Shown here piece by piece: positions 26-54,962 of a stretch of DNA of 64,000 bases. The DNA comes from a virus: the IMG/VR virus record IMGVR_UViG_3300027541_000695, positions 5,639-69,638 of that record. One strand, given 5' to 3'. The notes beneath the pieces are model-generated. The model saw only the letters and a program-made list of their open reading frames with translations. It was not told the origin of the DNA and searched no databases. A program made the translations under genes and the position numbers. Positions within the stretch are counted from its first letter, which is position 1, and each line of letters begins with the position of its first letter.

Positions 26-160
26 ATGCCGATCAATGATTATCCATATAGAGCGCTTATAAAGCTTCTCTGCAAGCTTAATCTACATTCAGCGTATAAG
101 CAAGCATTACCAAACCCACACGATCCCGACATCTTTGGTACTTCCTGGTTCACGGGGTGA
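26..160 (+). CDS. Microprotein, array family member 1 (44 aa; frame is open to the window edge)
   Basis: Hand-translated: MPINDYPYRALIKLLCKLNLHSAYKQALPNPHDPDIFGTSWFTG. GGAG at 13-16. Carries the LxxxLxKLxL array motif. Not in the ORF track. Confidence 0.65.
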   Translation: MPINDYPYRALIKLLCKLNLHSAYKQALPNPHDPDIFGTSWFTG

Positions 161-163
161 CGT

Positions 164-277
164 ATGTACGAACCTAGGTTTACGCAGAAAGGCATCGATC
201 GAGCCTGGGCCCGCCACAACCTACTCGTTTTATTGATGAAGTTCGGCATTAGAATGCCATATTATGATATACGGTAG
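164..277 (+). CDS. Microprotein, array family member 2 (37 aa)
   Basis: Hand-translated: MYEPRFTQKGIDRAWARHNLLVLLMKFGIRMPYYDIR. Starts 3 nt after the previous stop. Motif HNLLVLLMKFGI. Confidence 0.65.
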   Translation: MYEPRFTQKGIDRAWARHNLLVLLMKFGIRMPYYDIR

Positions 278-449
278 TCACCACTCAAGTAGGTCAAACT
301 TGTTAAAATTAAAGGTTGCGTTAATACTGCACAAGATGGGCGTCAAACACCCGAACATACAAGAAGATGTATATAACATAATGGGTATATACGTCAGTAG
401 TTATTATTATTACGATAATAAGCTCGGCGTTTTCTCTTACATACCGTAA
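264..449 (+). CDS. Microprotein, array family member 3 (61 aa)
   Basis: ORF track. Motif LKVALILHKMGV. Overlaps the previous stop. Confidence 0.7.
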   Translation: MIYGSHHSSRSNLLKLKVALILHKMGVKHPNIQEDVYNIMGIYVSSYYYYDNKLGVFSYIP

Positions 450-475
450 GCGCTAGATTACCTACCCACTTAAGA

Positions 476-481
476 TATAAT
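476..481 (+). promoter_or_regulatory. -10 box (TATAAT) 6 nt before ATG 488; leaderless-type promoter
   Basis: TATAAT-CTAGAT-ATG, no Shine-Dalgarno. Confidence 0.6.
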
Positions 482-487
482 CTAGAT

Positions 488-652
488 ATGACTAGGTCAA
501 GCGATAAGGTTAAGTATATGCGCGTCCATTTTCACAAGAGGGAGTATTACTGGCTCTTGGTTAAGATGTTAAGCAAACTTAACGTTATAAGCGAGGATAA
601 GTATTTCGCTTTCTTATTTTATATTCCATCAGATATCGAGTTTGACATATGA
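488..652 (+). CDS. Microprotein, array family member 4 (54 aa)
   Basis: Hand-translated: MTRSSDKVKYMRVHFHKREYYWLLVKMLSKLNVISEDKYFAFLFYIPSDIEFDI. ATGA overlap with the next ORF. Not in the ORF track. Confidence 0.7.
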   Translation: MTRSSDKVKYMRVHFHKREYYWLLVKMLSKLNVISEDKYFAFLFYIPSDIEFDI

Positions 653-843
653 TTCCGTGTTTTCCAAAGTTCATCAAGACGATGTCTCGCGATAGGAACT
701 TCGATATACAGTACGTGTGCGCTGTAACGCTCATGACAATGGGCGTTATCACCGATGAGCAGTTTAAGAAGTTCGTCGTAATGTATATCGCGAATTACGG
801 CGTCGGAACAAGTATGCAAGATGACGCGCACTATGATATATGA
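649..843 (+). CDS. Microprotein, array family member 5 (64 aa)
   Basis: ORF track. Motif YVCAVTLMTMGVITDEQF. Coupled by an ATGA overlap. Confidence 0.7.
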   Translation: MIPCFPKFIKTMSRDRNFDIQYVCAVTLMTMGVITDEQFKKFVVMYIANYGVGTSMQDDAHYDI

Positions 844-1027
844 TGGCTTTCGCAAAAGTTTGCAAGGTAAACATGGGGATAACGCGCTTGGCTCTTGGCA
901 TTGGCTCACTCTTGTTCTTTGGAAACTTGGACTTATGGACAGCGATGAGAGATTAACCATAGCACTTATGTTGATTGGTAGGTTGCATCAAAGGGATACA
1001 AATGAAGACGACGATGAAGCACGGTGA
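833..1027 (+). CDS. Microprotein, array family member 6
   Basis: ORF track starts at 821; ATG 833 (MIYDG) preferred. Motif HWLTLVLWKLGLMD. Confidence 0.7.
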   Translation: MIYDGFRKSLQGKHGDNALGSWHWLTLVLWKLGLMDSDERLTIALMLIGRLHQRDTNEDDDEAR

Positions 1028-1232
1028 AGACTGTAGATGCCCATATTGTCTAAGATACTCTATTCACTTGCTGTACCCTAACGGCGGGATGGATAGTTTA
1101 TCTTATATAGCTAAGTATAACTTGTGTAGCGTTTTGATGAAGTTGCGCGTAGCATCGCATAAGAACGTTGACGCGTATATTCGCGCGGCAATATTCGACG
1201 AGGTCTTACTGATGACCTCACACTTTTATTGA
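1014..1232 (+). CDS. Microprotein, array family member 7, with N-terminal HxxxCxCxxC
   Basis: ORF track starts at 975; ATG 1002 or 1014 is more likely. Motif YNLCSVLMKLRVAS. Confidence 0.7.
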   Translation: MKHGEDCRCPYCLRYSIHLLYPNGGMDSLSYIAKYNLCSVLMKLRVASHKNVDAYIRAAIFDEVLLMTSHFY

Positions 1233-1233
1233 T

Positions 1234-1380
1234 ATGATTCCAAAAGAGTTAGTAGCATGCGATAGGTTAGTGTGGGTACTGTTCCAGATGAGAGCAGTAT
1301 CTAAGAGTAATTACATGTTGTTTAGGTTCATGTGCAAAAAGAGACTGGATATCTGGATGCACCAGACAAATAAGGTATAA
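1234..1380 (+). CDS. Microprotein, array family member 8 (48 aa)
   Basis: Hand-translated: MIPKELVACDRLVWVLFQMRAVSKSNYMLFRFMCKKRLDIWMHQTNKV. Starts 1 nt after the previous stop. Confidence 0.65.
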   Translation: MIPKELVACDRLVWVLFQMRAVSKSNYMLFRFMCKKRLDIWMHQTNKV

Positions 1381-1460
1381 TATATGATGTACGTATATGC
1401 ACTTAACTTAGTAACTATGCTTGACTTAAACGGGCGGGGGCTCATAGCCAAATAAGAACT

Positions 1461-1637
1461 ATGAGAAACGTTAAGGTCTACGTTGACATGAATGACAAGA
1501 GAGATGGATGGATGGCGAGATACATAGTCATGTATGATCTTTTTAGTGTCATGGTAAAGCTTAAGATAATAAAAGACGTCACTATGGTAGACACTAATGA
1601 CCACAGCTGGACGCACAGGATAAGATTTGGGCAATGA
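1461..1637 (+). CDS. Microprotein, array family member 9 (58 aa)
   Basis: Hand-translated: MRNVKVYVDMNDKRDGWMARYIVMYDLFSVMVKLKIIKDVTMVDTNDHSWTHRIRFGQ. ATGA overlap with the next ORF. Confidence 0.7.
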   Translation: MRNVKVYVDMNDKRDGWMARYIVMYDLFSVMVKLKIIKDVTMVDTNDHSWTHRIRFGQ

Positions 1638-1861
1638 ATAGATATATAAGCATATTAAGCTTGCTGATCGTGGGTTTAGCCGGGGGGTGCGCGAGCGTCG
1701 AAATGAACCGATCGCACCATATGTTAAAAGTTTGCTCTATTCAGGGCTGTAATATAGTAAACGTGTTCGATAGCTTGTCTTACTGCATAGAGATGAGAGA
1801 TCAGTTGAGATCTGCTCACAAAGATGTCAGCGCTATATGTGAAGGGTTTAAAGAACCATAA
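1634..1861 (+). CDS. Small exported protein or putative lipoprotein
   Basis: N-terminus MNRYISILSLLIVGLAGGC has a basic residue, a hydrophobic core and a lipobox-like Cys; four further Cys follow. Confidence 0.6.
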   Translation: MNRYISILSLLIVGLAGGCASVEMNRSHHMLKVCSIQGCNIVNVFDSLSYCIEMRDQLRSAHKDVSAICEGFKEP

Positions 1862-2058
1862 TGTCGAGCATATACGATCACGACGAGTCGCACAAGCACA
1901 AGATACTGATAGCAAGAAGATTAGCTAAATTAGAGGCTAAAGCAGGATTGTTCGCGATCTTGAAAGCACTCAAGATAAAAGCTGCGACAAAGACAGCTGA
2001 TCGTTACTGGAACGAGTATATGGCTTTTTTAGGCGATCTGACAAGTAGAGCATACTGA
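1861..2058 (+). CDS. Microprotein, array family member 10 (65 aa)
   Basis: ORF track. Motif AGLFAILKALKIKA. TAATG coupling. Confidence 0.7.
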   Translation: MSSIYDHDESHKHKILIARRLAKLEAKAGLFAILKALKIKAATKTADRYWNEYMAFLGDLTSRAY

Positions 2059-2059
2059 C

Positions 2060-2269
2060 ATGGGATTCTATGAAAACATAGACATGTTTCAGGTCATGTC
2101 TGCGCTTGATCTTATAGTGATCTTGAGAAAGCTTAATGTAGCAGATGATATATTCTTTGGAACGGTATCTGGACGCAACTGGAACACGTATTACACAGAT
2201 TCGGATAAGTTTGCGTTGATCAAGAAGAGAGCAATTAGATCATCTTCAGGTCATCTCTTTAAGGTGTAG
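2060..2269 (+). CDS. Microprotein, array family member 11 (69 aa)
   Basis: ORF track. Motif LDLIVILRKLNVAD. Confidence 0.7.
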   Translation: MGFYENIDMFQVMSALDLIVILRKLNVADDIFFGTVSGRNWNTYYTDSDKFALIKKRAIRSSSGHLFKV

Positions 2270-2808: not shown

Positions 2809-3627
2809 ATGAGCATGGACAAACCAGGTAATGTATATCCTCCACCAGCGCAAGCGCCGACATCTACGCCGTCGCCGATGCCACTTTACATACCAGATCC
2901 TAGTATCAAGGGAATAAATTTTGATCAGTTGTTGAACCAGAGAGGAATAAGGTTCGTTCACTCTAAGGCTGTTCCATGCCCCAATATATTAGATGTAGAC
3001 AACAATGCTCACTTACCTGACTGTGAGCACTGTGATGACTCAGGCATACTTTACTACGGTGAGCAGGAAATATGGGGTATCTTTACAGGTAACTCTATAG
3101 AGAAAACGTTTGAAGCCCACGGCGTATGGGAAGTGGGAACCGCGGTAGTAACACTACCAACCGAATATCCTAATGGAGAACAGGCGGACTTTAATACTTA
3201 CGATAGACTAGTAATACCAGATTTTACTGTAAGAATGTGGGAGATGAAGGAATACGAGGCGAGACCTAACGGCAGGCAATCTCTTAGATATCCGGTAAAA
3301 AAGGTAGAATTTGCTTGTTCGATATCTAACGGCGTAAAAAAGATATATCAACCAGGTGTAGACTTTAATATAACTCCCGAAGGCGACATACAGTGGATAG
3401 AAGGACAAGAACCTTTTTATGACTCCAACATAGATAGGGGTGAGGCTATAATATGGGCGTTTTACTCTAATCCTGTATATGTAGTAGTTCAATGTTTAAG
3501 AGAACTTAGAATAACACAAGAACTTGTAAATGGGCAAAAAGTTGCAAAAAGACTCCCTCAACAGCTTTTAGTGCGCAGAGATTTTATGGTTGGCGCAGGG
3601 GAAAAGATAGCAAATTCTCAGGGTTAA
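2809..3627 (+). CDS. Neck/head-closure (stopper) protein, Herelleviridae-like, Zn-binding
   Basis: RGIRFVHSKAVPCP..DCEHCDDSG..GTAVVT..YDRLVIPD..LPQQLLVRRD recalls the Twort/K-like neck protein. Lies upstream of the terminator and sheath. Confidence 0.7.
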   Translation: MSMDKPGNVYPPPAQAPTSTPSPMPLYIPDPSIKGINFDQLLNQRGIRFVHSKAVPCPNILDVDNNAHLPDCEHCDDSGILYYGEQEIWGIFTGNSIEKTFEAHGVWEVGTAVVTLPTEYPNGEQADFNTYDRLVIPDFTVRMWEMKEYEARPNGRQSLRYPVKKVEFACSISNGVKKIYQPGVDFNITPEGDIQWIEGQEPFYDSNIDRGEAIIWAFYSNPVYVVVQCLRELRITQELVNGQKVAKRLPQQLLVRRDFMVGAGEKIANSQG

Positions 3628-3686: not shown

Positions 3687-5279
3687 ATGCCACATGCGGT
3701 TTCACGCAGACAGTATAGAATGATGCAAGCTATTCTTCATGGCAAGAAGGTAGATCAAGGATCTCGTGGTCGTCCTCCTAAAGAAGTAGCGAGAAAATAC
3801 ATAGAAGCAACAGGCAGTGCTAAAGATCTTCCAGAGCAAAGCGGAGAAGATAGAGGCGGAAGCTGGACAGACAAGCATCACGCTAAACATCATAAGAAGG
3901 AATCTAAGAAGCACGGCGGCAAAGAATCTTCTAAGGGCAAAGAACATAGATCTAAATCTGCTCACCATCTTAAAGAGCATAGAAAAAAATTAAAGAAAGC
4001 GTTTGAAGAGTTTTATAAGGGCAGAGGAAGAGCTGTGGCAACCCTTATAATAAATTCTGAAAATAAGGTATTATTAGGCAAACATAACTCGGGCAAACTC
4101 GCTTTTCCTGGTGGTCATTTAGAACCAAACGAAGGTTTTGAAGACGCTGCGCTTAGAGAAATGCACGAAGAGGCCGGAGTGTTAGGCAGAATAACGTCTG
4201 AGATATACAGGGGTTCCATCGAAGGTAATGAAACCGTAGTGTATCTTGCTGAGATTGCTAAGGGTAAACCTAAAGATACTACATCTGACGACGGCAAAGA
4301 AAAGATGTCGAGCTGGAAATGGTATGACATATCTGATATACCATGGGACAAATTACGAAATTGCTGTTTAAAGCCCCTTAAACAATTTATCGATCAAAAG
4401 CTCGGCAAGTCCTTAGAAGGCTTAGTGGCGTTAGAAAAATTAGAGAAGAACATAATACGTCAAAGAGGCGATGCAGTATTCGAAGTATCACACGGCGACG
4501 CACTAAAGATAGTTGGCAACGGTGTCTTTAGAGCTCTTAAGAAAGCCGTAGAAGACATGGAAGATGAAGATTTTAAAGATCTTAAGTTTGACAGCCATGT
4601 TATATCCATAAGAAAACACATGAACGATGTGTATTCTGGTCGCGTATCTGACGGACATAAAGTTGTATATCAATTTACTAACAAATCCCTTCCTGAGCTC
4701 GCTGTAGCTCTTATGAGCATATTCGAATGGTATCTTCCTGAAGATGAAAAAGAACTAGAGCTGCTTGACGATAAATCACTTTCAGATGATGCGATAGAAG
4801 GTGGCTTAAATGAGCTTATCGATAATTACAAAAAACACAACATAGGTAACATCTACGAAGAGATGGAAACAATACGTCAGCAGCTTAGAAATGGCGTAGC
4901 AGTAGATTTACAGCAGGTTGAAACTAAGATATTAAAGCTTTTTGATAAACTAGAAAATGTTGTACACGAAGCCGCAGGAAAACACAATAAGTTGTGTCAA
5001 GCGGTTGGAAAAGATCTTGACGAGCTTGAGAGAAAACTTAGAGCACTTCAAGAAAAAATAGACAACGATAATAAAAAACCAGATAAAATAGAAGCCGTAT
5101 CATCAAACCTATCTAATCAAGATAAGGTTCATAGCGATTTCTATTCTTATTTGACGAAACCAAGAATCGAAATAATGCCCAACGGAAAGATAACTATTTC
5201 CTTTGGCGGAGATTGGCAAGACTTAGAAAAAGAAAATTTTCTTAAGGACATGAAGGCCAAAGTAGTTAACAAAAAATAA
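3687..5279 (+). CDS. Nudix hydrolase domain protein with His/Lys-rich N-terminus and coiled-coil C-terminus
   Basis: Complete Nudix box GHLEPNEGFEDAALREMHEEAGV (GX5EX7REUXEEXGU). Own -10 box at 3642-3647 and an AGGAG SD. Confidence 0.85.
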   Translation: MPHAVSRRQYRMMQAILHGKKVDQGSRGRPPKEVARKYIEATGSAKDLPEQSGEDRGGSWTDKHHAKHHKKESKKHGGKESSKGKEHRSKSAHHLKEHRKKLKKAFEEFYKGRGRAVATLIINSENKVLLGKHNSGKLAFPGGHLEPNEGFEDAALREMHEEAGVLGRITSEIYRGSIEGNETVVYLAEIAKGKPKDTTSDDGKEKMSSWKWYDISDIPWDKLRNCCLKPLKQFIDQKLGKSLEGLVALEKLEKNIIRQRGDAVFEVSHGDALKIVGNGVFRALKKAVEDMEDEDFKDLKFDSHVISIRKHMNDVYSGRVSDGHKVVYQFTNKSLPELAVALMSIFEWYLPEDEKELELLDDKSLSDDAIEGGLNELIDNYKKHNIGNIYEEMETIRQQLRNGVAVDLQQVETKILKLFDKLENVVHEAAGKHNKLCQAVGKDLDELERKLRALQEKIDNDNKKPDKIEAVSSNLSNQDKVHSDFYSYLTKPRIEIMPNGKITISFGGDWQDLEKENFLKDMKAKVVNKK

Positions 5280-5280
5280 A

Positions 5281-5922
5281 ATGGTTAACATTACGCTTGA
5301 ACTTCAATCATTAAGGGCGATATTAGAGTCTAAGGGTTTAGATCCTGATACTGTCGATTCAATAGTCAGTAAAGCTAAAGAAGAGATAAATGGCGCAGTC
5401 GAAGAATTAGGCATGTCTGCGCTTGAATCGGCTATTGAAGCCGGCGTAGAAAAAGGATCTGATGAGTTTATAAATCAAGTTATGCTTGATAGAATAGGCG
5501 CACAGATCACGACTGAAACATTCAACACATCATTCACCGAGCCATCTAAACCCATGTTGCCTTATTTGCTGCAAGGAGCAAAACCGCTAAAAGACGGAAG
5601 TGGCGTTTATAAGGTAATTCCCGTTGGCTCTCCATCGACTTCTCCTAAACCAAGTATCGCTAGCAATATATATGATGCTTGGAAATATGAAAATACAAGA
5701 AGAATAGAAGCAGCTAAACAGAATTTTCAAAATATAGCGCCAAGAGGCTCAAAGGCAGAATTTAGAACAGCCACAAGCAAGCAGGACGCTAATACCCAAT
5801 GGGTTATCCCATCTAAAGAGAAAGATTTTACTGAAGATCTCGGCCAAATAAATGAATCCTTTAGGGATCAATTGAGCGAAAGAATAAGAGACATAATTAA
5901 GGAATACGAGGATTCGTTCTAA
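5281..5922 (+). CDS. Tail completion/neck protein
   Basis: KDGSGVYKVIP and FRTATSK..QWVIP motifs resemble the ~200-aa Herelleviridae neck gene that precedes the terminator; gene order agrees. Confidence 0.6.
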   Translation: MVNITLELQSLRAILESKGLDPDTVDSIVSKAKEEINGAVEELGMSALESAIEAGVEKGSDEFINQVMLDRIGAQITTETFNTSFTEPSKPMLPYLLQGAKPLKDGSGVYKVIPVGSPSTSPKPSIASNIYDAWKYENTRRIEAAKQNFQNIAPRGSKAEFRTATSKQDANTQWVIPSKEKDFTEDLGQINESFRDQLSERIRDIIKEYEDSF

Positions 5923-6939: not shown

Positions 6940-8742
6940 ATGGCAATAAACGTAAGTTTTAACGGAGCTACAATATACAAACCAGGCGCTTATTCGAAGG
7001 TCTCTATTGATCTCAGCGGTGGTTTTCCTCTTAGCCCGACTGGCCTTGTAGCGATACTTGGGGAAGCAGATGCTGGTGCACCTGGGGCTTCTGAAGTAAA
7101 CATCGCAAATAATGTATTTAGTCCAGAACAGCTTCCAGAGATAAAGGCAAAATATGGCAGAGGTCCAATAGTTGACGCGTGCAACCTTTTGTTTGCTCCT
7201 GGCTCTGATGGTGCAATACCAGGCGGAGCTCAAGCTATATACATTTATAAAACTAACGCATCTGTTAGAGCTTCTCTTGCTCTCGCTGGTTCTTATGGTA
7301 CAGTTCAAGCAAGAGAATGGGGTGTAGGCGGAAACAGAATAACTCTTAAGATAACTGGCTCCGGTGCTACTAGAAATTTAACGCTCTCTCAAAAAAGAGA
7401 TTTGCTTGTAGAAACTGCAACCGTTGGTGGTAATGTACTTGTTACTGTAACAAATGCTACTGCTGGTTCTACTGTTTCTATAGACGATAACAACGTTGTT
7501 CTTTTTAACGGAACAAGCTCTGTTTCTCTTCCTAAGGCAAGTTTTGGCAGTGTTGCCGATCTTGCAGAAGCAATTAATTTGATCCCTTCTTGGAGCGCAG
7601 TTTTAACCGCAGGACAAGATTCAAGACAATCGGTCAATGTTCTTGACCACGTATCTTCTCTTGACGCCGTTTCTGGTGCAGCTCTTAAAAAAGATGCAGC
7701 AGAAGTTGCAGCCTTCTTTGAGGCATCTAGCATAGCATCTCTTGAATCTGGCGCTAAGGTAGGTTTGCCTGCTGCTCTTGCGGAAGCCGCATTGTCTGGC
7801 GGCGCAAAGGGCGCAACTAGCACTTCTGAGATAGTTAACGCTCTTAGTAAGTTTGAAAAAGTAAGAGTTAACTCTGTTGTGCCTCTTATGTCTCGCGATG
7901 CGTCAGACGATGCAGCAGACGGACTCACTGAATCTGGGTCTAATTACACTATAGAAGGAATACATCAAGCTGTTAAGACACATCTTAGCTTGATGGCTAC
8001 TACTAAGAAGAAATCCGAAAGACAAGGATATCTTTCGTTGAAGGCCGATTACGCTGATTGTAAACAAAGAGCGCAAGATCTTGCCGCGGCAAGAGTTCAG
8101 CTTGCAATTCAAGATGTTCGTCAGGCTGATAGTGATGGCGTCATAAGATGGTTTCAACCTTGGGCCGCAGCTTGCTTGCTCGCAGGCGCAAGAGGCGGAT
8201 CGCCAATCGGTCTTCCTATGACCAATAAATATTTCAATATGAGCGGCATACGCCAAACAGGGCAATCTATGTCAACCGCAGAAGCGGATATAGTTCTCGA
8301 CTTTGATCCTGATACTCAATATGATGATGCTATATCCAGCGGTATAAGTTTCTGGGAAAGACCGCAGTCTGGCGGATTTCGCCTTGTAGTCGATAACACT
8401 ACTTACGGAAAAGACGGAAACTGGGTATATAACAGAGCTAACGTTCTTTACGCTGCCGATGTTCTTGCATATGATTTCAGAAATCAGCTTGAAAATCTTT
8501 ATGTCGGTGTTAAAAACACCGTTAGTGCTGCAGAAGTTAAATCTACTTGTGAATCTATACTTACAACGTATTTAACTCAAGGTATTACTGTAAGTACTGC
8601 AGATGCTAAAAATGGCTTTAAACAACTCGTAGTGCAGATAAATGGCAACACGATAAACGTTTCTGTTGTTGTTAAGTTAGTAGAAGGAATTGATTTTGTT
8701 CTCGCAGATATAACCCTGCAGAGAGCACAGCAATCCGCTTAA
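6940..8742 (+). CDS. Contractile tail sheath protein
   Basis: N-terminal YKPGAYSKV..VAILGEADAG and C-terminal LYVGVKNT..INVSVVVKLVEGIDFV are typical of sheaths. 600 aa, followed by a terminator. Confidence 0.9.
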   Translation: MAINVSFNGATIYKPGAYSKVSIDLSGGFPLSPTGLVAILGEADAGAPGASEVNIANNVFSPEQLPEIKAKYGRGPIVDACNLLFAPGSDGAIPGGAQAIYIYKTNASVRASLALAGSYGTVQAREWGVGGNRITLKITGSGATRNLTLSQKRDLLVETATVGGNVLVTVTNATAGSTVSIDDNNVVLFNGTSSVSLPKASFGSVADLAEAINLIPSWSAVLTAGQDSRQSVNVLDHVSSLDAVSGAALKKDAAEVAAFFEASSIASLESGAKVGLPAALAEAALSGGAKGATSTSEIVNALSKFEKVRVNSVVPLMSRDASDDAADGLTESGSNYTIEGIHQAVKTHLSLMATTKKKSERQGYLSLKADYADCKQRAQDLAAARVQLAIQDVRQADSDGVIRWFQPWAAACLLAGARGGSPIGLPMTNKYFNMSGIRQTGQSMSTAEADIVLDFDPDTQYDDAISSGISFWERPQSGGFRLVVDNTTYGKDGNWVYNRANVLYAADVLAYDFRNQLENLYVGVKNTVSAAEVKSTCESILTTYLTQGITVSTADAKNGFKQLVVQINGNTINVSVVVKLVEGIDFVLADITLQRAQQSA

Positions 8743-18074: not shown

Positions 18075-18080
18075 TATAAT
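18075..18080 (+). promoter_or_regulatory. -10 box 6 nt before ATG 18087 (leaderless)
   Basis: CGT-TATAAT-TAAGTT-ATG. Confidence 0.65.
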
Positions 18081-18086
18081 TAAGTT

Positions 18087-19040
18087 ATGGCTAATTTTTA
18101 TACATTAAGCGATATATTTGGAAAAGGTAAAGAAAAACCTATTTCGCAAAATAACGGCGCAACCAGCGGAATAGGGGTTAAAAAGCAGACGGCTCTTGAT
18201 CTTTATGGCTATGATGTCATAAAAGAGAATTGGTTTACTTCAAAGCCATATGCTTTTAGATTTACGCCCAAGGATGAAAAAGAGGGAGCAATAACAATAT
18301 ATTTACCCATATCTCCTAGTAATTTGACCATAACGACAAATTTTGCCACTAATATAATAACTACACTCTATGGAACCGTCGAAGAACATTCGCCCGTAAG
18401 ATATTACGACATATCTATAGAAGGAACAACGGGTATGGCCCCAAAATATGTAGAGCCAGCATTAAAAAATGGCGTTCCAATTAAAAAAGACGGTAGACAA
18501 AGTGCAACTGTAGATATCGGAATAGGGACAAAATTAGGCGGTTTTTTTCAGAACACATTAAGGATAATAAATAAAATTAAAAATCAAGCTAGTGAGTTAA
18601 CTAAAGATAATACTGAAGAAACCGGCGTGTACCTTAATAATACTGGTTATTTAGCCTTTCATAATCTCTATAGATTTTTTTTAAAATATAAGAAAGAAGT
18701 GTCCAGTGATGTAAATTCAACGCAAGCGTGGCACCATCACCCCTTGACATTTTTAAATTATAAAGATAACAATCAGTATGATGTTGTTGTAAGAAGCTTT
18801 ACGTTAAGAAGAAGTGCAGAAAATCCCATGCTTTATTATTATAATATAACCTTGAGAGCATACAACTTAAAGACCATAGATGAAAAAAATATGGGTCTTG
18901 ATACTCAAGATAGACTTAAAGAATTAGGTTTAAGTGGCGTTGATTCGTCGACTTTTTTAAGCAAGGCCAAAAACACGGCCAATAAAGTCAAGGGAATATT
19001 GGGGCCATTAGGAGCAGGGATTAACACACTTGGAAGATAA
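18087..19040 (+). CDS. Baseplate/tail-tube junction protein
   Basis: LPISPSNLTIT..DISIEGTTG..FTLRRSAENPMLYYYNITL pattern of tube-initiator-like baseplate proteins. Confidence 0.65.
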   Translation: MANFYTLSDIFGKGKEKPISQNNGATSGIGVKKQTALDLYGYDVIKENWFTSKPYAFRFTPKDEKEGAITIYLPISPSNLTITTNFATNIITTLYGTVEEHSPVRYYDISIEGTTGMAPKYVEPALKNGVPIKKDGRQSATVDIGIGTKLGGFFQNTLRIINKIKNQASELTKDNTEETGVYLNNTGYLAFHNLYRFFLKYKKEVSSDVNSTQAWHHHPLTFLNYKDNNQYDVVVRSFTLRRSAENPMLYYYNITLRAYNLKTIDEKNMGLDTQDRLKELGLSGVDSSTFLSKAKNTANKVKGILGPLGAGINTLGR

Positions 19041-47236: not shown

Positions 47237-47251
47237 TATAATTTATGTATT

Positions 47252-47776
47252 ATGGCTCGCTCTACAAATAAAGCTGGACTTAACTTAATCAAAGACTTTG
47301 AAGGTTTGCGTTTGAAGCCATATCTTTGCAGCGCTGGGGTACCTACCATAGGGTACGGAAGCACTTACTATGAGAATGGGACAAAAGTTTCTTTAAAAGA
47401 CAAAGAGATAACCGAAGAAAGAGCAGAAGAACTGCTTGCGTTTCATCTGAGAGAGCACGAACAACACGTTAATAATCTAGTTAAAAGTTCAATAGCAGAT
47501 AATCAATTTGCAGCCTTAGTATCTTTCTGCTATAACGTTGGACCCGGCTCTTTAAAGAAATCAACTCTTTTAAAGATGGTAAATGAAGGTAAACTTAATG
47601 ATGCTGCGGAGCAATTTTTAAGGTGGAATAAAGCTGGTGGCAAAGAGCTTGCAGGTCTTACAAGAAGAAGACAAGCAGAACGCTCTTTATTCTTAAAAGA
47701 AGACAATACACAAGAAGATCCCTCTGAAGAAGAGATAAATCAAAAGCTTTCCGACATAGAAAAAGATCTCATATAA
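47252..47776 (+). CDS. Endolysin, GH24 (T4/P22-type) lysozyme
   Basis: FEGLRLKPYLCSAGVPTIGYG (E-x8-C-x5-T triad), FAALVSFCYNVG and GLTRRR. TATAAT at 47237-47242. Confidence 0.92.
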   Translation: MARSTNKAGLNLIKDFEGLRLKPYLCSAGVPTIGYGSTYYENGTKVSLKDKEITEERAEELLAFHLREHEQHVNNLVKSSIADNQFAALVSFCYNVGPGSLKKSTLLKMVNEGKLNDAAEQFLRWNKAGGKELAGLTRRRQAERSLFLKEDNTQEDPSEEEINQKLSDIEKDLI

Positions 47777-54266: not shown

Positions 54267-54278
54267 TATAATGCTTAA

Positions 54279-54962
54279 ATGGAAAAACTTTTAAAGAGCA
54301 TTAAAGAACTTAATACTTTGCTAAAATTTATTAAGCAGATTAAGGATAATCCATTGGTTCCCTCTCCTAAGATGCCCGGAGTGAAAAAATTAGGCTCTAT
54401 AAAGACTCAAAAAATCACAAAAATACCTGGCATAGCGCCAAATACTCTCAAGGACCCTAACAAAGTAGCTCAGCAATTCAAAAATCCCGCACCCAAAAAA
54501 CCAAAGATGGAAATTTTAAAAACAACTTCTAATGGCCAATGGGATCTTATTGAAAAGGCTGTCTGGGAACATACTCCGCATATAAAGCAGCAAGATTGTA
54601 AGTGCAGTGGCGCCAGTAGAGGCGACAACATGCATCACTACAGCTGCGTTGACGCTAATCCGAAACCAGCAGCAGAAACAGCTAGACCAAATATAGACAT
54701 TAAGCATGACATGTCTCCTAAATTAAAAGATGCTATAGATAAATTTAATAAGAATGTTAATGTAGGTCATATTAAGTGGGATCACGATGATGGACACGCT
54801 TATTCTTACATAGACCATGATTATGGCGACTGTGATAGTCACGATCTAGATGAAAAAGACGCCAATACGTATCAAGATGCAATCACTGAGTGGTTACATG
54901 AAAATGAGGGCCGTAACGCTATAGATTGTGCTCAAGGCGCGCCTTGCGGCTGCAATCCGTAG
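54279..54962 (+). CDS. Hypothetical Pro/Lys- and Cys/His-rich protein (possible internal head protein)
   Basis: TGA-TATAAT 6 nt before the ATG. LLKS and NGQWDLIEKA motifs. Confidence 0.55.
   Translation: MEKLLKSIKELNTLLKFIKQIKDNPLVPSPKMPGVKKLGSIKTQKITKIPGIAPNTLKDPNKVAQQFKNPAPKKPKMEILKTTSNGQWDLIEKAVWEHTPHIKQQDCKCSGASRGDNMHHYSCVDANPKPAAETARPNIDIKHDMSPKLKDAIDKFNKNVNVGHIKWDHDDGHAYSYIDHDYGDCDSHDLDEKDANTYQDAITEWLHENEGRNAIDCAQGAPCGCNP

Follow-up and report, generated by a model that had tools for sequence, protein, structure and literature searches.

Blocks of tiny ORFan genes are frequent in large phages, where they are mostly left unannotated. One such block occupies the start of the 64,000-nt stretch of DNA analyzed here (the window, positions 5,639 to 69,638 of the IMG/VR record IMGVR_UViG_3300027541_000695), and it raises the question of whether its small open reading frames (ORFs) are genes and, if so, what such dissimilar sequences have in common. 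Positions 11-2269 of the window turned out to be where an uncultured river myovirus with a genome of ~170 kb has its hypervariable region of accessory genes. The array found there codes for about 9-12 microproteins (median length ~60 aa) of one family, which is lineage-specific and strongly diverged.

Organization of the array

Twelve small ORFs tile the plus strand between positions 11 and 2269 (Table 1), in agreement with a preliminary description made from the sequence, which had read this strand as tiled by tiny genes. The same description had proposed eleven carriers of a common motif; all eleven of the 12-residue cores that it quoted are present, and nine of the ORFs are supported by an HMM built from other phages, but the ORFs 649-843 and 1234-1380 are not, the latter having also a negative codon-usage margin. 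Its suggestion that the array continues upstream of the window holds for one further, weak candidate, which is picked by the Gibbs sampler described below and has a TATAAT 7 nt upstream of its ATG; beyond this ORF, however, the genes turn to the minus strand. The array adjoins the virion module.

Table 1. Small ORFs of the array, their motif cores, and the E-values obtained with the HMM built from relatives only; positions are those of the window unless stated otherwise.
Status	Position	Strand	Length (aa)	Core	Core position (nt)	HMM E-value	Remarks
Candidate first member (weak)	genome 5450-5677 (window -188 to 39)	+	75	YALLRSLLDLKV	outside the window	3.2	only the 3' end (1-39) lies in the window
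Member	26-160	+	44 (49 if TTG at 11)	RALIKLLCKLNL	50-85	7.9e-6 (as 11-160)	rank 1
Member	164-277	+	37	HNLLVLLMKFGI	215-250	1.2e-3
Member	264-449	+	61	LKVALILHKMGV	309-344	0.068	rank 7; moderate support
Member	488-652	+	54	WLLVKMLSKLNV	551-586	4.2e-5
Doubtful member	649-843	+	64	YVCAVTLMTMGV	712-747	22	Gibbs-picked
Member	821-1027	+	68	HWLTLVLWKLGL	899-934	0.11	rank 9
Member	1002-1232	+	76 (ATG 1002) or 85 (TTG 975)	YNLCSVLMKLRV	1116-1151	1.9e-5 (as 975-1232)
Doubtful member	1234-1380	+	48	DRLVWVLFQMRA	1261-1296	29
Speculative mini-ORF	1384-1455	+	23	YALNLVTMLDLN (motif-like)		27	fills a gap; unsupported
Member	1461-1637	+	58	YDLFSVMVKLKI	1533-1568	1.3e-4
Non-member	1634-1861	+	75			28	interspersed within the array; without the motif
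Member, A2 subgroup (52-65 aa)	1861-2058	+		AGLFAILKALKI	1942-1977	0.10
Member	2060-2269	+	69	LDLIVILRKLNV	2105-2140	0.027

The ORF 164-277, which leaves eight residues beyond its core, is preceded by an SD-like GGGGTGA, and a convincing SD is missing in several members. The ORF 488-652 has a TATAAT at 476-481, with the ATG 6 nt further on, and the mini-ORF has one at 1376-1381; together with the upstream candidate, these are the array ORFs whose ATG follows a TATAAT at a distance of 5-9 nt. A TATAAT also precedes the ATG at 2809, the start of a virion gene. Promoter-like sites as a whole are not enriched in the array, with 11 found and 11.0 expected.

Some ORFs are distinguished by features of their own. 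The ORF 1002-1232 has an N-terminal C-x-C-x2-C knuckle and weak homologues in three related loci (L039, L038, and L024) that combine the same Cys knuckle with the motif, and its 76-aa form was found in the protein collection (P0001). The ORF 2060-2269 has weak relatives on the minus strand of L002, L022, and L017, which bear the motif as well. The interspersed ORF 1634-1861, whose N-terminus is signal-peptide-like and contains a lipobox-like LAGGC (KD19 maximum 2.02), looks like a lipoprotein. As for the members themselves, their 19-residue hydropathy reaches at most 1.36, indicating that the family does not consist of membrane proteins.

The motif in the record, in related phages, and in databases

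The motif was recovered by a Gibbs sampler of width 12, run on the 13 tiling ORFs and given no motif in advance, which returned the same core as the preliminary description. Its score, 197.8, exceeded that of each of 60 residue-shuffled sets (mean 178.8, sd 3.5, max 188.9) and of each of 40 sets of 13 length-matched ORFs taken elsewhere in the record (mean 170.3, sd 4.8, max 179.5), so that the significance of the motif, for which the preliminary description had proposed a check, was borne out. Its further observation that the flanks are unrelated and the DNA free of repeats also proved right, as BLASTP within the array gave no pair at E ≤ 1 and DNA repeats were limited to 30-nt stretches of 70% identity among three motif-coding segments.

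Stronger evidence came from the relatives. The HMM, for which 123 segments were taken from other phages, was run on the 615 ORFs of the record and gave its ranks 1-9 to array ORFs throughout, with noise from 0.74, and the PSSM of the relatives placed the ORF 1461-1637 at the top of 614 ORFs with 14.9 bits and assigned 13.4 bits each to the ORFs 821-1027 and 2060-2269. The HMM test is partly circular, because its motif sets were chosen by a regular expression taken from the consensus of the preliminary description; the non-circular test is the de novo Gibbs sampling of the relatives, which found the motif in six out of six, each beating 12 of 12 shuffles. When the HMM was iterated over the loci, it did not get beyond ~60 matches, because a 12-residue motif has too few bits.

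The distribution of the motif depends on both strand and position. Across 46 related loci, with a conserved virion gene as the point of reference, a strict regular expression gave 41 plus-strand and 10 minus-strand matches upstream, compared with none on either strand downstream and an average of 0.01 in shuffled upstream ORFs. The seed HMM matched 92 of 1607 upstream plus-strand ORFs; its downstream matches were 0 of 1813 and 1 of 2758 ORFs. The clade consists of uncultured phages of 146-177 kb, each genome of which has 3-23 profile matches at E ≤ 1, and there are none in the genomes of Mx1 and T5. In complete genomes, family members occur also far away from the virion genes. Thus, the expanded and very divergent microprotein family that had been proposed is real, conserved at the protein level, and common to a whole clade of related phages. 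Most array ORFs are without orthologues. Among close variants, L050 is identical and L051 has 11 SNPs, five of them synonymous and six not, and these variants are too few for a usable selection test. Hints about the host obtained from MAG bins (Saprospiraceae, Cytophagales, Saccharibacteria) were discarded as too unreliable.

The array ORFs represent a real protein-coding family, their translation as such being predicted. Each conserved Leu is written with all six Leu codons, and pN/pS is ~0.22 over six orthologous pairs. In their codon usage, the window ORFs are only weakly gene-like: the margin is 0.055 per codon (9 of 13 positive), whereas long genes reach 0.44 and off-frame ORFs have -0.026. 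No Rfam or tRNA match occurs in the array. Metatranscriptome contigs from four of four runs span it at ~100% identity; since contigs of RNA libraries may contain DNA, they cannot prove transcription, nor do they give strand, transcript ends, or timing.

One member, the ORF 1861-2058, belongs to a conserved orthologue group that carries the motif, named A2, with the alignment pattern ...KLE...LhYFLRDLGIKSA...W..YM..LG.L. Its membership follows from a jackhmmer search started from L018:2170-2352 (E = 2.2e-15), and comparison of A2 with A1, the profile of the array family, by hhalign gave a probability of 87% (E = 3.9e-6). The A2 proteins have D instead of K two residues ahead of the Gly, which means that the Lys is not universal in the motif, and they possess a conserved second element, W..YM..LG. 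Longer or fused A2 forms were not found in the homologous-protein search, which is weak evidence.

The array family, which the preliminary description had not recognized, is a real but unnamed gene family that matches none in Pfam, PHROG, or PDB. Searches with ten window ORFs gave a best E of 0.073 in Pfam (13.4 bits, with a cut-off of 22.3) and of 0.0054 in PHROG, the latter to a family of unknown function, and the ORF 2060-2269 had no match in either. When 134 A1 segments and 18 A2 members were scanned, no family was matched by more than two of them (best E = 0.0043), and the best PDB match of the family profile, 4yv6_A, was not significant (E = 1.6). In a phage collection of 50,697 records, the array was without a match at the DNA level and tblastn with an A2 member gave none at E ≤ 1, and the homologous-protein search returned nothing for A1 and, for the ORF 975-1232, only the window's own cluster. 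A profile search of 1.84 billion proteins yielded two matches: P0003, a 117-aa protein of phage-like look with two copies of the motif, and P0002, an acidic repeat protein of 1077 aa, which contains 11 stretches resembling the motif but is regarded as unrelated. The ESM Atlas provided no usable match for the ORF 488-652; for an A2 member it pointed to P450-fragment clusters, rejected because 138 of 256 shared features correspond to chance level. In the literature, a keyword search on phage small-protein paralogues arranged in tandem brought up no relevant paper.

The proposed capped helix and its possible roles

The sole element present in all members is a unit of 14-16 residues, [S/A/H/P]-x-x-x-L-h-x-h-L-x-K-L-[G/K/N]-[L/I/V]-h-[S/T], with hydrophobic residues spaced i, i+1, i+3, i+4, and i+7. 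The sequence pattern supports its prediction as an N-capped, three-turn amphipathic helix whose C-cap is a Gly (Schellman-type) and against which a hydrophobic residue folds back. Pro occurs in 0 of 219 ORFs at the two unconstrained core positions and has its maximum, 9.2%, at position -3, and Gly occupies the cap in 41%. The placement of the motif varies, with a median of 23 residues before it (10th-90th percentile 9.8-48) and 24 after it; six or fewer residues follow it in 21 of the 219 ORFs, and ten or fewer precede it in 24. The flanks share no periodicity or pattern. Members in the window, as well as one subfamily among the relatives, have [S/T]-x-x-x-[Y/F] after the cap, and a second helix seems to begin there.

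Because the motif may lie anywhere in the ORF and the flanks have no shared periodicity, it would seem to be a self-contained unit. The best explanation overall, adopted tentatively and with a little less than even confidence, is that of a family of capped-helix microproteins in which the helix would function as a protein-association module. The helix may bind a shared partner, or else drive the self- or hetero-association of the paralogues, and the unconstrained flanks on either side would give specificity. The outcome would be a quickly turning-over repertoire of small effectors, expressed from a block beside the virion genes.

A bolder form of this proposal, which is unlikely, would make the capped helix a universal address tag that docks the fast-evolving repertoire of 10-23 microprotein payloads of each genome on a single conserved hub, which could be a protein of the host or else the virion, with each variable flank neutralizing a different host factor or defense allele. 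By analogy, the array might then be the counterpart of the T4 CTS/internal-protein arsenal, with proteins of 25-100 aa and a helix that is independent of position.

Docking to one common partner, and a role of the proteins as host-takeover or anti-defense adaptors, as suggested in the preliminary description, are likewise hypothetical, and a reading as simple as docking is that the motif, helix plus cap, is the folding core of a tiny helical hairpin. Taken as purely structural, the motif would be the folding nucleus of a helical hairpin or a three-helix bundle, and the paralogues would have unrelated functions and partners and no common docking target. This is conceivable, if on the doubtful side: the apparent start of a second helix after the cap and the conserved second element of A2 suit it, as do the best, non-significant analogues, which are helix-cap-helix corners with Leu in the core (pb10 a4-a5 and Rgg residues 40-64). 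However, since ORFs end near the motif on both sides, the partner helix would need to lie on either side of it; moreover, 37-aa proteins are unlikely to fold alone, and the flanks have no pattern in common.

That the members are degenerate HTH or other nucleic-acid-binding mini-proteins, serving as a set of small regulators or of proteins that bind the nucleoid, is improbable. The core L-L-x-K-L-G-[IV]-x-S resembles helix 2 and the turn of HTH motifs, the best PDB match is an XRE-type HTH regulator, and among the 13 ORFs that bear the motif or are candidates, the net charge is positive in 11. Nevertheless, that match falls in helices 4-5 and not in the recognition helix, no HTH family of Pfam was matched by any of the 134 + 18 members, and motifs at the extreme C-terminus, as in the ORF 164-277, leave no room for a recognition helix.

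Still more improbable is a tag for targeting to the virion. It would fit the vicinity of the virion module, the T-even internal proteins, which are described as highly diverse and sharing a conserved CTS alone (PMC3012670), and a weak likeness of A2 to the capsid-binding domain of T5 pb10 (hhalign 33% probability, P = 4.6e-4, over pb10 residues 35-64 alone). Yet the position of the motif is variable instead of N-terminal, no protease-site pattern was seen in the members, and some of these lie far from virion genes; the pb10 likeness, besides, is not significant (HMMER E = 0.59 and 1.8) and concerns a4-a5, not the likely capsid-binding helices as presented in PMC5292684. Finally, the idea that the ORFs are not genes but frames left open by chance in intergenic or regulatory DNA, with the motif a by-product of composition or a DNA element, has hardly any credibility, since the weakly coding-like codon usage, the lack of a convincing SD in several members, and the absence of orthologues for most ORFs are outweighed by every shuffle and other-ORF control, the strand and position specificity over 46 loci, the codon diversity at conserved residues, the pN/pS value, the conserved A2 orthologues, and the absence of Rfam or tRNA matches and of real DNA repeats.

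The ORFans of one block thus form a single paralogous family that is recognizable by the capped helix alone, and motif and HMM together offer a handle to annotate hundreds of otherwise invisible microproteins. The family is a natural experiment on the limit to which proteins can diverge while retaining one helix, and the array members are concrete candidates for small-protein function in phage-host conflict. Should the helix really serve as a docking tag, this would amount to a new principle by which phages diversify their effectors.

Comparison with known systems

Like the motif, the HTH of XRE/Cro type, exemplified by the Rgg regulator 4yv6, has a helix with L-x-K-L-[GN]-[IV] at its end, after which come a short turn and another helix, whereas many members of the array family are too short for such a domain or end at the cap. 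In the NTD of T5 pb10 (PDB 5lxl and 8zvi), the helices a4-a5 show the pattern F-L-R-x-L-G-h-x-S-A...W..[FY]h, which was aligned with the A2 consensus over 30 columns. According to the account of pb10 in PMC5292684, a4 (Y34-L41) and a5 (N49-Y60) have a Gly-containing loop between them, L37 and L41 are buried, and the protein also has an Ig-like domain at its C-terminus and, in a1-a2, the motif F-G-(X)2-L-P-(X)4-5-F-F; unlike pb10, the A2 proteins lack both, and T5 itself has no match to the A1 profile. In both of these weak similarities, such a motif forms part of the core of a small helical domain, which suits a purely structural role as much as one in association.

The T-even internal proteins are like the array in that a short constant element is found on otherwise diverse, fast-evolving small phage proteins, as reported in PMC3012670. 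There is no sequence similarity between them and the array family. Their CTS is N-terminal and is cut off by the prohead protease, whereas the motif of the array family can be internal, N-terminal, or C-terminal.

The host-takeover module of the Bacillus phage SPO1, made of small early genes, resembles the array in being a contiguous block of small genes, mostly of unknown function, in a large myovirus; the cluster is given as 26 genes (PMC6873191). The structural module of the river phage bears a distant resemblance to its counterparts in SPO1 and Mx1, and the homology of its virion protein 2809-3627 to SPO1 gp6.4 (29.6% identity, E = 3e-14) indicates a structural lineage distantly common with SPO1. 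We know of no motif common to the proteins of the SPO1 module, whereas the members of the array are paralogues that have one capped helix in common.

Motif and membership of the small ORFs

Twelve ORFs of 37-85 aa tile the + strand from position 11 to position 2269, and the eleven motif cores quoted in the preliminary description, with the consensus L-h-x-h-L-x-K-[LM]-[GNRK]-[VIL], were all found. The same motif was recovered by a Gibbs sampler (width 12) to which it had not been supplied, run on 13 tiling ORFs, one of them just upstream of the window. The score of 197.8 is higher than that of any of 60 residue-shuffled sets (mean 178.8, sd 3.5, max 188.9) or of any of 40 control sets, each of 13 length-matched ORFs from other parts of the record (mean 170.3, sd 4.8, max 179.5). 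The members had been described as divergent and free of DNA repeats, correctly, since no pair of array ORFs is matched by BLASTP at E ≤ 1 and the only repeats are 30-nt matches of 70% identity among three motif-coding stretches. Neither Rfam families nor tRNAs were found in the array region.

The expected continuation of the array upstream did not materialize: it extends little further, because beyond one more + strand ORF with a weak motif (genome 5450-5677) the coding strand changes to −. Immediately ahead of the array are three paralogous − strand genes of about 150 aa (MMNQKEAVY...; L001:553-1005, in the record's own locus, and genome 4024-4470 and 1495-1950); L001:553-1005, the only one scanned, matches nothing in Pfam or PHROG.

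Membership was assessed with an HMM of 123 segments, all from other phages, run on 615 ORFs of the record. Array ORFs occupy ranks 1-9 (E 7.9e-6 to 0.11, noise from 0.74), in a test that is partly circular because the segments were selected by a regular expression from the preliminary consensus; de novo Gibbs sampling on relatives is the non-circular counterpart, and a PSSM made from its sites in six relatives places six array ORFs in the top eight of 614. Thus, the grouping of eleven cores into one family holds for nine of them and for the family context; ORFs 649-843 and 1234-1380, like the upstream ORF and the 23-aa ORF 1384-1455, are unsupported by both the relatives-only HMM and the PSSM.

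Features of the array region and of related loci (window positions unless a locus or genome is named)
Feature	Position	Strand	Remarks
Array ORFs in the HMM top nine	11-160, 975-1232, 488-652, 1461-1637, 164-277, 2060-2269, 264-449, 1861-2058, 821-1027	+	
75-aa ORF, hydrophobic N-terminus and LAGGC	1634-1861	+	Inside array; lipoprotein-like
Two paralogous Cys-rich proteins, 78 and 91 aa	2251-2487, 2488-2763	−	C..C..CP patterns; between array and virion gene
Virion structural protein	2809-3627		Downstream of array; phrog_1004 match
530-aa protein with NUDIX domain	3687-5279	+	Within virion module; phrog_1198, E=1.6e-15
Tail sheath	6940-8742		Downstream of array
TATAAT 5-9 nt 5' of ATG	476-490, 1376-1389, 2797-2811, 18075-18089, 47237-47254, 54267-54281; genome 5450 (L001:1312)		
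PagL-like outer-membrane protein and cytochrome c, related locus	L002:7207-7695, L002:7867-8208	+	PF09411 E=2.1e-9; PF13442 E=1.1e-8

The array family in related phages

A scan of 46 related loci, retrieved with the neighbouring virion protein, showed that the family is common to the relatives. At E ≤ 1, a seed HMM of 12 window segments matches 92 of 1607 + strand and 22 of 1530 − strand ORFs upstream of that gene, and just 0 of 1813 and 1 of 2758 downstream. The strict pattern L-h-x-h-L-x-K-L-G-[IVL] has 41 (+) and 10 (−) upstream occurrences (mean 0.01 after shuffling of these ORFs) and none in the roughly 360,000 residues downstream, while the 261 occurrences of the loose pattern fall to 22.9 ± 4.5 upon upstream shuffling. 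De novo Gibbs runs gave the same core in all six relatives sampled (e.g., LLNLLTKLGLYK, NLLEFLYKLGIK and FLRVLHVLGLV), every score exceeding its own 12 shuffles. The family profile (A1) matches clade genomes 3-23 times each at E ≤ 1 and 11-12 times at E ≤ 0.01, mostly within the array adjoining the virion genes and some elsewhere, and none in Mx1 and T5.

Orthologues of ORF 1861-2058, 52-61 aa long, are encoded on the − strand of at least 13 relatives and show the pattern ...KLE...LhYFLRDLGIKSA...W..YM..LG.L; this conserved subgroup is called A2. A jackhmmer search from one A2 relative recovers the window protein (E=2.2e-15) and later reaches array members of other loci (E 1e-10 to 1e-3), and the A2 and A1 profiles match each other (87% probability, E=3.9e-6); by these profile comparisons the array and A2 are a single family. 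The last two members, 1861-2058 and 2060-2269, lie on the + strand and their relatives (L018:2170-2352, L002:8657-8992) on the − strand beside the Cys-rich genes, an arrangement suggestive of a local inversion.

For most array ORFs the related loci contain no orthologue, while the Cys-rich genes (2251-2763) occupy a fixed position in 29 and 39 loci out of 46; judged by this gene content, the array is a hypervariable island flanked by conserved genes. The Cys-rich proteins match no Pfam or PHROG family. Lipoproteins, a PagL-like outer-membrane protein and cytochrome c are interspersed in the relatives' arrays, the latter two implying a diderm host and auxiliary genes in the island. The lipoprotein-like ORF 1634-1861 of the window array carries five nonsynonymous and two synonymous differences in the near-identical contig L051.

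Shape, possible role and coding of the motif

Outside the 10-residue core, the 219 de-duplicated upstream + strand ORFs show weak conservation (S/A/H/P at −3, N/K/R/S at 0, I/V at +11, S/T/K at +12). Proline never occurs at the two core positions left free by the regular expression, is most frequent at −3 (9.2%) and reappears at +12/+13; glycine fills position 9 in 41%, and hydrophobic residues are spaced i, i+1, i+3, i+4, i+7. From this placement and periodicity the motif may be described as an amphipathic helix of three turns, N-capped and ending in a Gly C-cap, which is followed by a hydrophobic residue. Its position varies, 21 of the 219 ORFs ending within 6 residues after it and 24 starting within 10 before it. 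The flanks of these ORFs have no common periodicity, and no window member contains a membrane-spanning stretch.

Because the capped helix would be self-contained and position-independent, even in proteins of only 37 aa, protein association, with a shared partner or among the members, is tentatively favoured as its role. Nearly as likely is a purely structural role, in which the motif would be the core around which a mini helical hairpin folds. That the proteins are degenerate HTH or other nucleic-acid binders is improbable; the family profile aligns with residues 40-64 of the Rgg XRE-type HTH domain at a non-significant E=1.6. A virion-targeting tag is still less probable. Here the comparison is between A2 and the N-terminal domain of pb10, the decoration protein of T5, also non-significant (E=0.59; hhalign 33%, P=4.6e-4, pb10 residues 35-64). 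In the excerpt of PMC5292684, this region runs from helix a4 (Y34-L41) through a loop to helix a5 (N49-Y60), L37 and L41 are core residues, and capsid binding is credited mainly to a1-a2; the a1-a2 motif and the Ig domain are missing from A2 proteins.

That the ORFs are non-genes is very improbable. Every conserved Leu position uses all six Leu codons (11-53 uses apiece), and the constraint on the motif is thus at the protein level. For six pairs of orthologous family ORFs from different loci, a crude count without multiple-hit correction gives pS 0.42 and pN 0.094 (ratio 0.22). Codon usage of the window array ORFs is only weakly gene-like. The array is covered by contigs from all four metatranscriptome libraries, which is compatible with transcription and is not proof of it. 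SD-like sequences precede about half of the phage's long genes. There are 17 sites of the form TATAATN{5,9}ATG where 8.4 ± 2.8 are expected, and 1 of 100 shuffles reaches that observed number; the TATAAT only 5-9 nt ahead of ATG suggests that transcripts of several such genes may be leaderless or nearly so. The preliminary reading of an expanded family with a constant docking helix stands in part: by the HMM, pattern and Gibbs evidence, the array is very probably a real, protein-coding, lineage-specific microprotein family common to relatives.

The phage and the nearest known arrangements

The window covers bases 5639-69638 of its source, an IMG/VR virus record of 69,638 bases (41% complete by CheckV). 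Half of the tail sheath aligns with that of Myxococcus phage Mx1 at 34% identity, the 272-aa virion protein shares 29.6% identity with SPO1 gp6.4, complete relatives measure 172-177 kb (with terminal repeats in two), and the phage's DNA is present in river metagenomes; on these grounds the phage is taken as an uncultured large myovirus distant from every isolate. A very large NUDIX protein of Mx1 occupies the place corresponding to window 3687-5279.

Pfam and PHROG searches of the family gave no match, and PDB profile searches gave only the non-significant Rgg and pb10 matches, which illustrate a possible structural form, a helix-cap-helix corner, and are no evidence of membership. A profile search of 1.84 billion proteins found P0003, which is 117 aa long and carries the phage motif twice; P0002, a long acidic repeat protein of 1077 aa with 11 motif-like stretches (MMQKLGLRHS / ILRKLGIRCS), is probably unrelated. 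Functionally, the two nearest known arrangements are the host-takeover gene cluster of SPO1 (excerpt of PMC6873191) and the internal proteins of the T-even phages; the array is an expanded family within a phage accessory-gene block.
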